DNA from: an uncultured delta proteobacterium
Lineage (GTDB): Bacteria > Desulfobacterota > Desulfobacteria > Desulfobacterales > JAFDCJ01
Length of the DNA: 64,000 nt
Reading direction: 5' to 3'
NCBI GenBank assembly: GCA_963769935.1
Contig: CAVYNY010000011.1
Span: forward strand, 448,001 to 512,000
Shown: piece by piece, positions 7,109 to 17,434 of the stretch
How the letters are laid out: the number at the start of each line of letters is the position of its first letter
How positions within the stretch are numbered: the stretch's first letter is position 1
Translations under genes and position numbers: made by a program
Notes under the pieces: model-generated
Told to the model about the DNA's origin: nothing
Seen by the model: the letters and a program-made list of their open reading frames with translations, nothing else
The model's database searches: none

Positions 7109-7204
7109 CAATATCAAATGAAGAAAATATAGGGTCACCCATTAAAGGGCTTGTCAAGAGAAAAAACACCCCCTTGATCAAAAAAAATCAGTTTTTGATT
7201 GACA

Positions 7205-7315
7205 TTGATGGATTCCTAAAAAGCCCGTGCTCCTGGGTTAGCTTTTGAACGCAGGCGATGGTTTGTGCTGCTGATGGTCTTAAGATAAAGATCAGGCTTT
7301 TTAGGAATCCATCAA
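7205..7315. mobile_element. MITE-like element inside the IS110 end region
   Basis: Perfect 21-bp inverted repeats TTGATGGATTCCTAAAAAGCC (7205-7225 / 7295-7315); no ORF. Confidence 0.7.
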
Positions 7316-7319
7316 GTTT

Positions 7320-7865
7320 ATAGCGCTCCTCAGCCCAGTGTCGCCTTTTCTCCTTTTCGCGCCCGCTATTTCTTTCTTATTGGCTTACGGTTAGTATTTT
7401 CTGATCCGCATCAGTCACCCATCAGGCTCAAGGCATTTGTGTTTTAAGCTCAAGGCTTGAAAACACCGCCCCTGGTCCGCTTGGGACCCCAGAAATTCTT
7501 CGGTTCCATACCGTGTTCAATTGGATGTGTTACAAATCTTGTGGTTATTAGCCAACCCCTTATGGACTCACGGCATAGGCGAATCGAGATCTAAAGCGAT
7601 CGCTGTCTGGTTATTATTGGCGAGTGCAGCAGCTGCCAATCACATCTAATGGTTTAGTGCCAACCCCTATACCGGCTCACTGCCGCACTCCAACTCTTAT
7701 CGCATACGCACCTGCCTTTTTAGTCGCTCAAATATTGGTGTCTTTTAAGGCCGATCGATGTATCATCGGCAATCAACTTTGATCGATTAGCTGGGTGCGG
7801 CAGCTGCCAATCAAAGCTGGTGGTTGAATACCAACCCCTTATCCGGTTGACTGCCGCACCCAAAC
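7320..7865 (-). ncRNA. Putative IS110 bridge/seek RNA with three target-type loops and a donor-matching segment
   Basis: Stem-enclosed units at 7793-7861, 7622-7690 and 7506-7579 share GGGGUUGG-N5-AACCA. Segment 7415-7424 matches the IS end. RNA ends are not known. Confidence 0.7.
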
Positions 7866-7868
7866 CGA

Positions 7869-8885
7869 TTAACTAAATAGCTTGTCCTCATCGAAGGCAA
7901 CCTGATCGCGCATGATGTAGTAAGAGGCCCGAGACAGCTTGTTGCTCAATGCCTTGATTGCTACCACATTCTTGCTTCTCGCCTTTTTGCTCTGATAAAA
8001 ACTGTGTGCCTTGGGACAATATCTTTTGGCAAAGTTGGCCGCCTCCACATAGGCCCAGGCCAGGTACTTGTTGCCATTTTTCTTGTTGTTCTCACCTTTT
8101 TTCTTGCCATTGGATATTCTCTTACTTTGCACACATCGACAGTAGGAAGAATAGTCACCAACTGTAGCAAAACGTCCAATATCCCCGACTTCCAGCATGA
8201 TGGTCAGCGCTAAAATCTTGCCTATCCCCGGAATCGTAAGCAACTTTGCAAATTCCTTGCGCAGCTTGGCCTGTGACATGACACGCTTTTCAATGCCTCT
8301 AATAATGTGCTTCAAAAATTCAATCGTCGCCCAACTGTTGGTGGCCATCAATACTAAATCCGGACAATCGAACAGATCTGCAACATCTATGGCGCTCAGT
8401 TTCTTGATTTCATTGTTGGATATCTTAAAACCCAGATTTCTGCTGACCATACTCTGCAGACTCAAGATCTGCGCCGTTCGCTGTCGCACAAATAAAAGCC
8501 TGCGGCGTAACAAATCCCTTACCGCTCGATTCTCCTTGGGGTAGATGTATCCTTCAGCCAGCAGGTTCAAGCGGTACATGTGCGCCAACCAAAATGCATC
8601 CCAGGGATCATCGGTATGCTTCAGTCCCTCGTATTGTTTGATTGCCGAGGGATTAGCCAAATGAACCTCGTAGCCATTGTCCTGCAGGCCGTCGACCATC
8701 CAATACCAATTGAACGTGGATTCGATTACCACCGCCTTAAGGTTTTCCTTAAACGGTTCCAGCGCCTTCAAGACTTCCTCCAGCCGGTTGCAATGCCGCT
8801 TGCCATAAAGCCTCTTATCGTTGCCGTCGATGATTCCAATAAAATTATTACTTGAATGCAAATCAATTCCAGCGTATGTTTCCAT
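7869..8885 (-). CDS. IS110 family transposase/recombinase
   Basis: GIDLHS and IEST (DEDD RuvC-like domain), KHTDDPWDA, LTIPGIG, SNGK; RBS AGGAGG. Confidence 0.95.
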   Translation of the reverse strand: METYAGIDLHSSNNFIGIIDGNDKRLYGKRHCNRLEEVLKALEPFKENLKAVVIESTFNWYWMVDGLQDNGYEVHLANPSAIKQYEGLKHTDDPWDAFWLAHMYRLNLLAEGYIYPKENRAVRDLLRRRLLFVRQRTAQILSLQSMVSRNLGFKISNNEIKKLSAIDVADLFDCPDLVLMATNSWATIEFLKHIIRGIEKRVMSQAKLRKEFAKLLTIPGIGKILALTIMLEVGDIGRFATVGDYSSYCRCVQSKRISNGKKKGENNKKNGNKYLAWAYVEAANFAKRYCPKAHSFYQSKKARSKNVVAIKALSNKLSRASYYIMRDQVAFDEDKLFS

Positions 8886-9118
8886 GGGACACCTCCTAAA
8901 TCCTATAAAATTAATGTTAGACCCTTGTCTACTGGTTCCATAGCATATTTTGCTATGGATAGGGAGGTGTCCTTTCTCAAGCTCGGCAGGCTGTAGTGAG
9001 ATTTATCGCCAGCGGTCCGTAAGAAAATCTCACGCTTGACGAGCAATAACAGCTGAATGCAGGAAAAAAAGCAGTATCTATGATTTCCTGCCCTGTTGCT
9101 CTTTATATGTATATCAAA

Positions 9119-9185
9119 GCTTGAATTGTGAATAATAATCAAAATTGTTCTACTATAATTCACTATTCAAGCCCCTTATTTTTCT
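9119..9185. repeat. REP-like GACCCC-type hairpin, the IS110 target (other part at 7122-7137)
   Basis: Inverted repeat GCTTGAAT(T/A)GTGAAT at 9119-9133 / 9158-9172; outer arms AGAAAATA..AGGG / CCCTTATTTTTCT. Confidence 0.7.
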
Positions 9186-13655: not shown

Positions 13656-13721
13656 AGGGGGACATGGGGGTCGCATCTCAAAAAGGGGGACATGGGGGTC
13701 GCATCTCAAATATTAAGTATT
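13656..13721 (+). repeat. Tandem 27-bp repeat (period 28) forming the left terminal repeat of the RAYT-like element
   Basis: AGGGGGACATGGGGGTCGCATCTCAAA at 13656-13682 and 13684-13710. Confidence 0.9.
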
Positions 13722-14678
13722 TTCCTTCTGATTCGATCCTCCCGCCCCTTAAGCTTGCGATCCGTCTCAAGTTTTTTCGCGATCCGGTCATGCCGAGCCG
13801 CGATTCCAGCTCCGGAGATGTCGAACCGCCTGCCCAGGACGACACTGGTTTCTCCCGTCATTTCCCTGCAAAGATAAATCGCCACATCCCGGGCTAAATT
13901 CCTCTTTTTCCCTTTTTGTAGGATGCTTTCTATCCCGCAACCGAATTCGTCGGAAACCGCTTGAATAAGATCATCGGGCGTTGGGCGGGGTTTCAGGATT
14001 TTCAGTTGGGGGATCTCCTGGCTGTTCGATTCCTTGCTTAAAAATGTCTTCTTCACCCAGTTTACGAAATCGACTCGCCCCAAAACAACACCGCCTACGA
14101 CGTCATCGGACGGATTCTCAATCTTTATGTTTTCGACCGACTCGACAAATTCACGGTATCTTTTTTTCGCGATGTCTCCTGTCCTCTCCGAACAGCGACA
14201 ATAACCAGTCCGTCTCCAGCCATTCCGGAGACTCAACATAGCCGCTTAAAGCCCGGTAGCTGCTCCATGGATAGTCTCTGCAATGTTCAACCATCCCCGC
14301 CCGCACCGGATTCAGATGGATATATCGCGACAGGTGCTTTAAATATTCATCCGCGTCCACCAGCACGGCTTTGAAGCGCCCTTGGAACAGATGACCGAAG
14401 CGTCTTCGTTTGCGATTGAAATACACCGAATAACCGACGTTGATCCATTTGATCGCCTGACTCAGGTTCGCATGGGGAGTTTCTATCAAAAAGTGATAAT
14501 GCGTGCTCATCAGGCAAAAGGTATGCACCTTGATTCCGTATCGTTTCACCGCCTCGCCGACATATTCCAAGAACTTTTCCCGGTCCCGCTCGCTCCTATA
14601 TATATTCATTCCCGTGTTTCCGCGATTCATCACGTGATAGAAAGCACCCGGGAATTCTATTCTTAACGGCCGCGCCAT
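13706..14678 (-). CDS. HUH/Y1 transposase (RAYT/IS200-like) with C-terminal DnaA_C-like HTH; one frameshift near 14200
   Basis: YHVMNRG, MSTHYH (HuH), GHLFQGRF, YIHLNPVRAG, WSSY; second ORF ends RDVAIYLCREMTGETSVVLGRRF. Confidence 0.85.
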
Positions 14679-14728
14679 TCAAAAATACCTTTTTGTTTCG
14701 CTAAAAAGCATCTTCTTTTGTTTTTCGC

Positions 14729-14757
14729 ACGCTATCTTAACGGCATGGCCTTGTCAA
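14729..14757 (-). promoter_or_regulatory. Putative sigma70 promoter of the RAYT-like gene
   Basis: TTGACA-17 nt-TAGCGT. Confidence 0.5.
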
Positions 14758-14763
14758 TACTTT

Positions 14764-17022
14764 GTAGAGTAGAACATCGGTGCAGTGGCTGCAGGCGTCG
14801 GCGGCATCTCTGCCGATTTCCCGGCAGACCTCAGTCCGACTACCATACCTTCCTTCCCTTAGTCCCCTCGTCGAACCGGACGTCGGGTTTTCCCCGGTAC
14901 GGCTCACCGACGACCTTCCCCATGTGTTTATCAGTAACCGTTGCCGTTGAATTACAGTGACTAACCGAACTGGTATAATCCCAGTCGAACAACTAAATTG
15001 TTGTGGACTCTCCAAGTGCCCCTCGATCGATCACTGTACTTCCGCTTCAGGAATATTCGCAGCCGTTCGCGGACAAAGGCATTGAGCTTGCGAAGCCGTT
15101 TGAGCACCGGTCTTGTCGCTTTGTGATAATTGTTCCAACCCCGTATTACCGGTGTCAGCTCTTTTATCAACTCCTCCAGCGATAGACTATAGCGTCGCCC
15201 AATGACTTCCTTCACTCGTTGCCTGATGCGGCCCATCGAACGCTCTGAAGGCCATATTGCGCAGAACTGCTTTGATTTCGAGTTCTTCTTGCGCACCGGA
15301 CACAGACGCAAATGCACGCCGAGAAAATCAAACCCGTCTTTCGCTTTAACCATACGCGTTTTATCCGGGTGCAGCTTCAAGCCAAGACGTCCCAGCATCT
15401 GCTCCACCTGCTTTTTAACCTGCTTTCCGTTACGCCACAGCAAGATAACAAAATCATCCGCATATCTTACCAGTGTTCCTGGAATTCCCGACATCTGGAA
15501 CATTTTGTCAAACGAGTGTAGATAGATATTGCTCAGCAACGGTGAAATTACACCACCTTGCGGAGTTCCCAGCCCGTTCGTTTCGATATATTTGCCCTCT
15601 TCCATGACCCCGGCTTCCAACCACATGCGAATTAACTTTAAAACACGCGCATCAGCGATGCGGCGTTCAACCAGTTCCAGTAGAATATCCTGGCGAATAT
15701 TGTCGAAAAATCCCGTTATATCGGCGTCAAAAACGATGCGCTGACCTTTGAAGGTAATCCTGCGTTCTATTATACGGATCGCGTCATGGGCGCTTCGCCC
15801 CGGACGAAATCCGTGAGAACAATCCAAAAAATTGGCCTCAAATATCGGCTCGATTACCAGTTTGGTCGCCATCTGGCAAACGCGGTCAAAAATAACCGGA
15901 ACCCCAAGCGGCCTTTTCTCAGGTTTGCCCGGTTTGTCGATATAGCACCGCAGCACTGGCTGCGGCCGGTACCGCTTGCTTTTTAATTGCTCGCGGACTT
16001 CCGCCAGAAATTGATCCACACCAATTACATCCTCGATGTATTCAAAATCCTGCCGATCGACTCCAGGTGCACCCTTGTTGGCCTTGACGCGCTTCCAGGC
16101 CTCCAAAACAACATCTTCACGATAGATCTTATCGTAAAGAGCCCCGAATCTCCTATCCAGCGACTGCTTCGCTGCATGGGACAGTTTAGACTGCAAGTCA
16201 GAAACTTTGTTCCGCACGTTCATAGCTCCTTGAGCACTCATGCCTTCTTACTGTTAACAGATAGAAATGCAACTGGTGTTTAAACCGATGATGATTCGGG
16301 ACAGTTCGAGTTCTTGGCCCGGTGGTCGCACCGTTCCCCAACGACTGCCGGTTGGGTTTTGTTAAAGCGGGGTCCCCGTAAACCCGCACCTTATCCTCAC
16401 CCTCAAATCTATCCACTGTTCCGCATTTCAACTCACACCCTAAACGCGGTCGAAGTATGGCCCCACGCTCAGGACAGGTTATGTTGTCCTGCCCGTCGTC
16501 ACTTCCAGGCCACTCCGACTTCCCTACGCCCATCACCTCCATCTTGCCGGTTTCACCCGACTTGATACAGGCTTACCGCAGGCGGAGACCTGCGGAGACG
16601 CTGGGATCTCAGGTCTTTCCTCCATTATCTGTCACCGCATGCCGTTGGCCTTACCCCGGGTCCCTACCAGGTGCGCATACCCTTTGCTTCCCTGGTAGCT
16701 CTGGCCTTCTCCCAAATTATAGAGGATCGGCGGGTATCCCTGCGATGCAGGGTTTATCCCTCAATCGGACTCTCCCAGCTATAGCCGTCCGATCACATCT
16801 TACGAGGCTGCACCATTCGCGTCATGCTACGGCCTGCGGTTTTGGCCGGCACCCCTGACTGGGTAAAACCCGCATATCCTGCGAGCCGTCTCGGTACCGT
16901 GTCGGGGCAAGTTCAGCCCGCGTGTTACCACGCGAACCCGCCCTCTGCCTTCATATCCATAAGGGCAACTGATATGATAACCTCCTTTCAGGTTACTAGA
17001 TAATGGTCTCGCGACCTCGTAC
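14764..17022 (-). mobile_element. Group II intron, full length (~2.26 kb)
   Basis: 5' end GTACG; domain V GAGCCGTACCGGGGAAAACCCGACGTCCGGTTC; 3' end CTACTCTAC; EBS1 at 16714-16720 pairs with the 5' exon. Confidence 0.9.
14961..16241 (-). CDS. ltrA: Group II intron reverse transcriptase/maturase, no endonuclease domain
   Basis: NKGAPGVD, RPLGVP, SHGFRPGRS, GTPQGGVISPLLSN, RYADD, FDFLG, IRGWNNY. Confidence 0.95.
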   Translation of the reverse strand: MSAQGAMNVRNKVSDLQSKLSHAAKQSLDRRFGALYDKIYREDVVLEAWKRVKANKGAPGVDRQDFEYIEDVIGVDQFLAEVREQLKSKRYRPQPVLRCYIDKPGKPEKRPLGVPVIFDRVCQMATKLVIEPIFEANFLDCSHGFRPGRSAHDAIRIIERRITFKGQRIVFDADITGFFDNIRQDILLELVERRIADARVLKLIRMWLEAGVMEEGKYIETNGLGTPQGGVISPLLSNIYLHSFDKMFQMSGIPGTLVRYADDFVILLWRNGKQVKKQVEQMLGRLGLKLHPDKTRMVKAKDGFDFLGVHLRLCPVRKKNSKSKQFCAIWPSERSMGRIRQRVKEVIGRRYSLSLEELIKELTPVIRGWNNYHKATRPVLKRLRKLNAFVRERLRIFLKRKYSDRSRGTWRVHNNLVVRLGLYQFG

Positions 17023-17434
17023 ATAATTTAGATGCGACCCTGGAGACCTTCATCAAGCAGGATATTCAATATCGCCGGCAGGCCGGCAATCATTGAACCC
17101 GGCGCTTGCCGGACCGGGACGTTTATCATTCGGCCGGTTTCATTTTTTTCCGATTTTAAGAGTGGTTGACCGTCAATCGCTCCAATAGGCGATTTTCAAT
17201 CGACGCCGGCGAGTGTTTCAATCCCCAGAAACCCGAACTCCCTGTTTTGCCCGGGCGCCTTTCCCCAACCATTTGCTGTCAATTAACCGTGCCCCACATT
17301 TCAACCTTGCCCAAAAAAAATCAATCTGGTTATCGGAAATGACCAAGTCAGAGGGGTGACGTCCATTTTCTCCCCCGCCCTCGGTTCCTCCCGCCAGGCA
17401 AGGGAAGCAATATTACCCCGCGCTTGGGCTTTGC

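Follow-up and report, generated by a model that had tools for sequence, protein, structure and literature searches.

Bridge recombinases are used for genome editing. Characterised bridge and seek RNAs hold one address per element. As described in the available text on IS621 and IS622/ISCro4 (PMC11208160; PMC11208158; 10.1101/2025.05.14.653916), one target loop and one donor loop are located 5' of the gene for a DEDD and serine recombinase, with the target loop upstream of the donor loop, a 2-nt core (CT), a 5-nt arm, handshake dinucleotides (AU in the target loop) and loops that are separable. In IS621 the right target guide pairs with the core and positions 10-14; the next two bases, A81/U82 in the wild-type target loop, are handshake bases and pair with the incoming strand (PMC13626964; PMC11208158). 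The target and donor loops of IS621 come from different RNA molecules and work separately (PMC11208158), and split loops work in IS622 (10.1101/2025.05.14.653916). Elements of the IS1111 group have a long non-coding region 3' of the transposase (PMC11208160), and the top-strand match lies 5' of the bottom-strand match in their guide RNA (PMC11187229). ISEc11, ISPa11 and ISKpn4, seekRNA elements of this group, are presented in the text of that study with one seekRNA per element, a target module of 70-100 nt, targets in repeats and natural re-aiming among relatives (PMC11187229). A target-loop-only RNA was the main bound species in ISEc11, as a short seekRNA (PMC11187229), and in CazIS110-1, which has a single target loop and where this RNA is ~77 nt long (10.1101/2025.10.25.684509).

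We describe here an intact IS110 element of the IS1111 type with an array of loop units in its 3' end, located in a 64,000-nucleotide stretch of DNA (the window) from an uncultured delta proteobacterium. The element shares with ISEc11, ISPa11 and ISKpn4 all of the traits named above except the number of guides, since two modules of different spelling are present here, along with a third loop and a donor loop. With IS621 and IS622/ISCro4 it shares the recombinase type, the 2-nt core, the 5-nt arm, the handshakes and the order of target and donor loops, and predicted loop separability, but the core is TG (YG in targets), the array lies 3' of the gene on the flipped strand, and there are four modules. 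Instead of exactly one target and one donor loop, two target loops and a third loop were thus found. We put the probability at roughly 0.72 that loops 1 and 2, duplicated but spelled differently, are alternative guides to the target, ahead of a conserved third loop and a predicted donor loop in the array, and that the mechanism proposed below applies. Sequence comparison established the four-module layout, the boundaries, three copies in two target families, covariation between guides and flanks, and a conserved fold. In the text of the studies compared on bridge RNAs, seekRNAs and TIGR systems, PMC13604230 and 10.64898/2026.10.21.760802 included, we found no natural element in which two target loops are programmed differently; bridge RNA folds of diverse kinds, perhaps with multi-loop ones among them, are shown in Fig. 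S12 of 10.64898/2026.10.21.760802. A bridge system of the IS1111 type with two guides, whose two targets can be read out in nature, is likely to be new.

Other repeated systems resemble the array in part. TIGR-Tas arrays, as described in the available text (PMC12045711), likewise consist of tandem stem-enclosed units with two short guides, have CCR and UGG bounds that by eye resemble box C/D, and involve a related Nop-like RNA-binding domain. TIGR arrays are long, serve Tas proteins and have no donor loop, whereas here at most two intact tandem loops serve an IS110 recombinase, and no long dual-spacer array beside a Tas protein without a transposition role was found. The same source sets bridge RNAs, as single two-stem units, against TIGR arrays (PMC12045711). 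Expanded IS110 loci with tandem non-coding repeats (10.64898/2026.08.14.744561) also show duplication of a non-coding unit beside an IS110 transposase, and cargo capture; their repeats are defined as at least 95% identical and no re-programmed guides are described in the available text, while here the repeats are ~76-79% identical and the guides differ. The logic of the array had been called CRISPR-like, which was an overstatement: there are at most two intact tandem loops, duplication and point change are the apparent origin, and spacer acquisition was not evident. A CRISPR array would have direct repeats, acquired foreign spacers and cas genes; the guides here are point variants of one 5-7 nt word family. 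No Rfam family matched at a meaningful score.

The recombinase gene encodes a 338-aa protein in which a Pfam search found both PF01548 and PF02371, corresponding to a DEDD RuvC-like domain and a Tnp domain with the catalytic serine, and which scored 183 bits against NF033542 (cutoff 140). Residues E55, D93, D96 and S258 aligned with the catalytic residues of IS621 in structure 8WT6, and D8 was read from a GID motif. The protein is identical in all three genomic copies. These copies have a TG core at both ends and the empty repeats have a single YG, which indicates insertion around a short common core without target duplication, as in other IS110 elements; the core is thus TG (YG in targets) and not GA. 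Non-coding DNA extends over 736 nt to the right of the recombinase gene and ~230 nt to the left, in agreement with the long 3' region of the IS1111 group. Guide A, the complement of the right flank, stands before guide B, a copy of the left flank, which is the IS1111 order. The subterminal inverted repeat is imperfect (7/9 here and 8/9 in many relatives) and its extensions are only roughly 7/3, compared with the IS1111 rule of 11-13 bp and 7/3-bp extensions.

Features of the element and of its targets in the window (strand as read; a point marks a feature given without strand)
Feature	Position	Strand	Basis or remark
IS110-family recombinase, 338 aa, intact	7869..8885	-	Pfam DEDD_Tnp_IS110 and Transposase_20; NF033542; alignment to 8WT6; same protein in three copies
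Left target flank CAAGCTT	9117..9123	-	Arm of inverted-pair repeat 9119-9137 / 9154-9172; read by unit 1; four empty repeat copies in genome
Left end: TG core 9116-9115, then AT (donor handshake bases); imperfect subterminal inverted repeat	9098..9116	-	Boundary common to three copies
Target loop 1: 12-bp stem; guide A 7842-7834; guide B CCAGCUU 7820-7814; core UG; predicted handshake AU 7811-7810	7793..7861	-	Matches flanks of C11 and C39 copies
Target loop 2: scaffold as loop 1; guide A 7671-7663; guide B UUAGAUG 7649-7643; core UG; predicted handshake AU 7640-7639	7622..7690	-	Matches C15 flank and RAYT-like terminal repeats
Unit 3: conserved third loop adjoining donor loop; guide-like CAAGAUU-UG, then UA, no handshake	7506..7579	-	Entropy, handshake, fold
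Predicted donor-binding loop with long internal hairpins; weak guide for left end at 7500-7492; GAUGGG-UG guide plus handshake AC for right end at 7424-7414	7400..7505	-	TG-AC in 82/82 distinct donor loops
Perfect 21-bp inverted repeat in variable part of right end	7205..7315	.	Missing from several relatives
Right end: TTGACA -35-like hexamer 7157-7152; subterminal repeat; core TG 7137-7136	7136..7157	-	Kept in relatives
Right target flank, ACCC side	7127..7135	-	Copy comparison
Empty unit-2 target: right terminal repeat of RAYT-like Y1 transposase element	17028..17040	+	Pattern and domain search
Two more empty unit-2 targets, other end of that RAYT-like element	13668..13706	-	Pattern search

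The TTGACA hexamer of the right end is a good candidate -35, joining of the circle junction gives only a weak -10, and a promoter scan found no minus-strand promoter in the linear element. In metatranscriptome runs X16-X19 the element was represented by small shares and scattered contig fragments, which speak neither for nor against its expression. A contig from a DNA run of another sample (X2) joined window position 7137 to 9124 and represents an IS-free allele. This allele is 7 bases shorter than the predicted empty site, with seven left-target bases missing, and was thus not taken as confirmation of that site; it may reflect either a strain variant or imprecise excision. The 21-bp inverted repeat of the right end encloses 69 nt and may be a small insertion or a terminator; two weak Rfam hits of plant miRNAs on this hairpin were taken as chance.

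The three stem-enclosed units and the donor match proposed from the sequence alone were all recovered at their positions on the minus strand. Guide B of unit 1 matched the left flank plus core at 9/10 positions, guide B of unit 2 matched 17028-17037 at 9/10, and the segment at 7415-7424 matched the right end of the element at 9/10, each as had been claimed. Guide A is indeed complementary to the ACCC side, but the true right flank fits at just 7/9 positions here and the conserved part is GGGGU alone, so guide A hardly distinguishes targets. By analogy with IS621, loops 1 and 2, read on the strand opposite to the transposase, appear to have the layout of five arm bases, UG and AU. Units 1 and 2 form a 71-nt direct repeat with 79% identity, and a 31-nt loop core is present three times, in units 1, 2 and 3. 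The 741-nt region folded better than 20/20 shuffled sequences (z -4.2). Stems covaried among relatives, with 14/19 pairs changed on both sides, a level reached in 0/500 shuffles, and stem pairing reached 91% compared with 20-45% in slid controls. With a covariance model of the unit, just 7 intact units of the loop-1/2 type were detected in the 8-Mb genome; the three copies account for six of them and a related remnant for the seventh. The handshake AU followed the core in 149/152 distinct loop-1/2 units among relatives, the metagenome loci being the best 80 of 255. It matches the left ends, all 110 of which begin TG-AT, while AC follows the core in 103/103 right flanks found and matches the AC of the donor loop.

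Three copies that are >99.7% identical were located on contigs C11 (the window), C39 and C15, and remnants of related elements on C10, C12 and C13. At C11 and C39 the copy is preceded by CAAGCTT, a word that agrees with unit 1 at 6/7 positions and with unit 2 at 3/7; the C15 copy follows TAAGATG, which unit 2 matches at 6/7 and unit 1 at 3/7. The AGCTT family, an inverted-pair repeat, has four empty sites in the genome and the AGATG family has twelve by a strict pattern. Six listed AGATG-type sites, including the occupied C15 site, lie within 4 kb of a Y1 transposase hit, and three of these are ends of the RAYT-like element at ~13670-17040 of the window. The three unit-2 copies are the only intact AGATG guides in the assembly. 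Because near-identical copies sit in two repeat families, each of which matches one loop, we regard this element as a probable multi-guide form of the bridge recombinases that arose in nature, and the proposal that it stores more than one differently programmed target loop is upheld. An independent relative (L077, 89% aa identity) has the same pair of guides in the last five bases and is located in a unit-2 site. In another genome (G001), identical two-loop elements occupy two site types (L010/L049 vs L011/L012), the second of which is closer to loop 2.

The core itself differs between the two junctions. The right junction has a CG core in 19/103 loci (for example the C15 copy, L012, L030 and L038), and the left junction in 0/110. 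This right-only pattern fits one-sided inheritance of the target core and is a clue to the transferred strand; the one-strand transfer described in the available text on CazIS110-1 (10.1101/2025.10.25.684509) would fit the asymmetry. Among empty sites, CG was found in 8/12 of the AGATG family vs 0/4 of the AGCTT family.

Several further observations concern these repeats. Near position 73855 of C18 in the same genome (G000), an AGCTT arm adjoins no more of the left end than its first 7 bases, beyond which the DNA is unrelated, possibly a scar of a partial event. AGCTA before YGACCC is 14.6-fold enriched genome-wide (30 sites) and represents a repeat family without a matching guide here. A group II intron at 14717-17016 (RT ORF 14961-16241) ends ~12 nt from the RAYT-like terminal repeat spelled by loop 2. 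The left flank of the C15 copy adjoins such an intron end; three kinds of mobile element are nested at one repeat. The RAYT-like Y1 transposase at 13706-14678 consists of two overlapping ORFs (Y1_Tnp at 14151-14678 and a DnaA-type HTH at 13706-14239) and is probably frameshifted. Among relatives, the AGACT target family (left flanks of L002-L005, L013, L019, L024 and L035) often forms a short palindrome, GGGTCAA ... TTGACCC, a REP-like hairpin.

Homologues were collected from genomes (76 loci), from metagenomes (the best 80 of 255 hits) and from this genome (four loci), with L195 added; the remaining loci of L157-L214, mostly duplicates, fragments or elements of 33% identity, were kept outside the statistics. 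Units shorter than 55 nt or below 25 bits, including a degenerate first unit in Scalindua, were not counted as guides. As had been anticipated, guides vary across homologues and covary with the insertion flanks. In one-loop loci (n=47) the guide matched the flank at 4.28 of 5 positions vs 3.05 after shuffling (0/5000). Covariation is limited to the five core-adjacent bases, where positions -5, -3, -2 and -1 of guide B were well above the null and -4 is nearly fixed; positions -7 and -6 were at the null level, and guide A, with its near-fixed GGGGU, showed no clear covariation with the right flank. Wobble types (guide U against target C, guide G against target A) made up 30/45 mismatches.

Both loops were assessed in two-loop elements. 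Among 28 collapsed cases, loop 1 fitted the flank in 16 and either loop in 24, leaving 4 flanks that fitted neither. Where loop 1 failed, loop 2 fitted in 8/12 cases with wobble allowed (null 2.9, p = 0.0007) and exactly in 6/17 (null 2.2, p = 0.012), p values that ignore kinship although kin are not independent; under a different null the rescue was 9/13 and 7/19. Taken alone across two-loop elements, loop 2 was barely above shuffled values (3.51 vs 3.35, 342/5000). Loop 1 is used more, with 16 exact fits vs 7 for loop 2 in 35 cases, and loop 2 fitted while loop 1 and unit 3 both failed in only 3/35 (C15, L077 and L015).

The donor-loop assignment made from the sequence alone also held among relatives: GAUGGG-UG-AC was found in 82/82 distinct donor loops, with metagenome loci again the best 80 of 255. 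The predicted donor loop is complementary to the circle junction and includes a handshake guide, as in IS621-type bridge RNA. Its second guide, at 7492-7500 here, is weak, with 6-8/9 positions matched and only loose covariation.

Taken as a working mechanism, transcription of the circular form would start at the circle junction and run past the transposase gene into the array. Every loop of 70-75 nt would then likely be released, or else bound on its own, by one recombinase dimer, and the donor loop would be held by a second dimer. Guide A would read the GGGT side and guide B the 2-nt core plus 5 bases; the AU after the core would pair with the incoming donor, and the AC of the donor loop with the incoming target. 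The predicted destinations are AGCTT-YG-ACCC repeat doublets for loop 1 and, for loop 2, the AGATG-YG-ACCC sites at the ends of RAYT-like elements; G-T and U-G wobble would broaden both ranges. The element may benefit from a greater number of harmless landing sites in repeats, and would be a case of mobile DNA that tracks the ends of other mobile repeats as safe places to land. Loops would likely originate by duplication, be re-aimed by point change or loop-loop recombination, and be lost by deletion. Addresses appear stacked in this element, with two in use across three copies. If confirmed, multiplexing would need nothing engineered beyond a compact 75-nt module, the ~150 natural loop variants with their landing sites would yield readable targeting rules (5-base arm, wobble, handshake), and the role of the third loop in such elements would be directly testable. 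It would also bear on how guide arrays such as TIGR might arise from, or collapse into, bridge RNAs.

The third unit separates the two-guide explanation from readings that give it a larger part. The sequence-only reading had counted three programmed guides, of which two behave as such. Unit 3 is nearly invariant, with a guide entropy of 0.9 bits vs 2.9 and 2.5 for loops 1 and 2; AT follows its core in 1/74 units vs the 149/152 given above; and it rescued 2/13 unexplained flanks against a null expectation of 2.2. Sites with its word, AGATT, number 5 in the genome vs 7.6 expected, so they are not an enriched target. On entropy, the missing handshake, rescue no better than chance and this target census, unit 3 was rejected as an independent programmed guide. 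It occurs in one-loop relatives too, is enclosed with the donor loop in one stem system, and probably serves as a scaffold or a loose accessory loop rather than in guiding insertion. That all three units are working insertion guides, with unit 3 as a generalist for AGAYY, the core of the target family, would accord with its retained scaffold and UG core, with AGATT being the best average match to all observed flanks, and with a flank match of 3.89 vs 3.19 shuffled in one-loop elements. Where loop 1 and unit 3 disagree, flanks follow unit 3 at 11/37 positions but the upstream loop at 24/37, and none of 135 loci (metagenome part the best 80 of 255) has unit 3 as its sole target-like loop, which, with the results above, makes this reading quite unlikely. 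Unit 3 does loosely track the target family, which leaves room for a generalist or excision role. The latter is developed in a tentative proposal, well short of an even chance, that unit 3 and the donor loop form a standing bridge RNA for excision and circle formation from any family site, while loops 1 and 2 are free, seekRNA-like insertion guides. The stem link to the donor loop, a word central among target words and the missing pro-insertion handshake are consistent with such a division of steps, as are the available reports that handshake pairing tunes direction in IS621 (PMC13626964) and that target-loop-only RNAs dominate in CazIS110-1 (10.1101/2025.10.25.684509); elements that lack unit 3 and all target loops have nevertheless moved in trans. 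We rank this proposal as a refinement of the two-guide explanation more than as an opponent.

A more restrictive view holds that loop 1 alone works, loop 2 being a neutral or decaying duplicate, and that the RNA of a different element brought copies into loop-2 sites in trans. Delivery in trans does happen in the family: four copies in one genome (L003-L005 and L067) are missing every target loop as well as the first half of the donor loop, and the transposase of three of them has a stop, yet they are multi-copy. One of these, L004, was likely delivered in this way, its site being a 7/7 match to loop 2 of an intact relative in the same genome (L017). The C10 remnant keeps half a unit with an AGATG guide, loop 1 fits most insertions, and the second loop is deleted or degenerate in some relatives; in L085, L089 and L125 it is internally deleted, and is thus dispensable. 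This view is nonetheless unlikely, given that the sole intact AGATG guides in the assembly are the loop-2 copies, that the stem of loop 2 is kept by compensatory change and its handshake is retained, that the two guides of a pair differ in the five core-adjacent bases in 39/40 distinct pairs with loop-2 variants that are real target words, and that loop-2 rescue was above both nulls. An assembly chimera or flank swap at C15 would make the two-target pattern an artefact; the genome is metagenome-assembled with 5.4% contamination, and misjoins are common for multi-copy IS elements. We regard an artefact as most improbable because the C15 copy is marked by a substitution of its own and by a right core, CG, that typifies the AGATG family and is absent in the AGCTT family, both of its flanks come from one repeat type, and L077 repeats the pattern independently.

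Loop number varies among the relatives. Of 135 loci read to unit 3 or to the right end, 63 have two loops, 66 have one loop plus unit 3, 4 have no loop and 2 have one loop but no detected unit 3, with copies not merged and the metagenome part limited to the best 80 of 255. The model detected no more than two intact tandem loops in any of 64 loci. Single units were present in 6/150 further genomes of the phylum; a protein search found no relatives in viral contigs, where all 15 pattern hits failed the unit model. On a protein tree made by a quick method, the one-/two-loop state changes 14 times, 5 of them forced by starred branches, with gain and loss not told apart. Loops are gained, fused and deleted among relatives: the single loop of L020 and of L035 joins a 5' arm of the first-loop type to a 3' arm of the second-loop type, and L115 (1024-2252) and L118 (798-2000) have an extra target loop and, between loops, a 222-aa coiled-coil ORF ahead of the array. 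This ORF, which matched no Pfam family above cutoff, is cargo captured inside the guide array. The two-guide explanation might be extended to an evolving natural guide array, in which loops released singly share one recombinase and one donor loop, duplicate, sometimes with cargo, are re-aimed by mutation and loop-to-loop recombination, and are accompanied by a handshake-less third loop for excision. We hold this extension tentatively, at a little under even odds; if true, the element would represent an extant intermediate that links one-guide bridge RNAs to TIGR-type arrays, and multiplexed insertion would have a ready-made scaffold. In Scalindua-type elements (L039-L044 and L072-L074), the first 85 nt past the stop codon contain a stem-enclosed first unit that is A-rich, has no UG core and is kept across copies.
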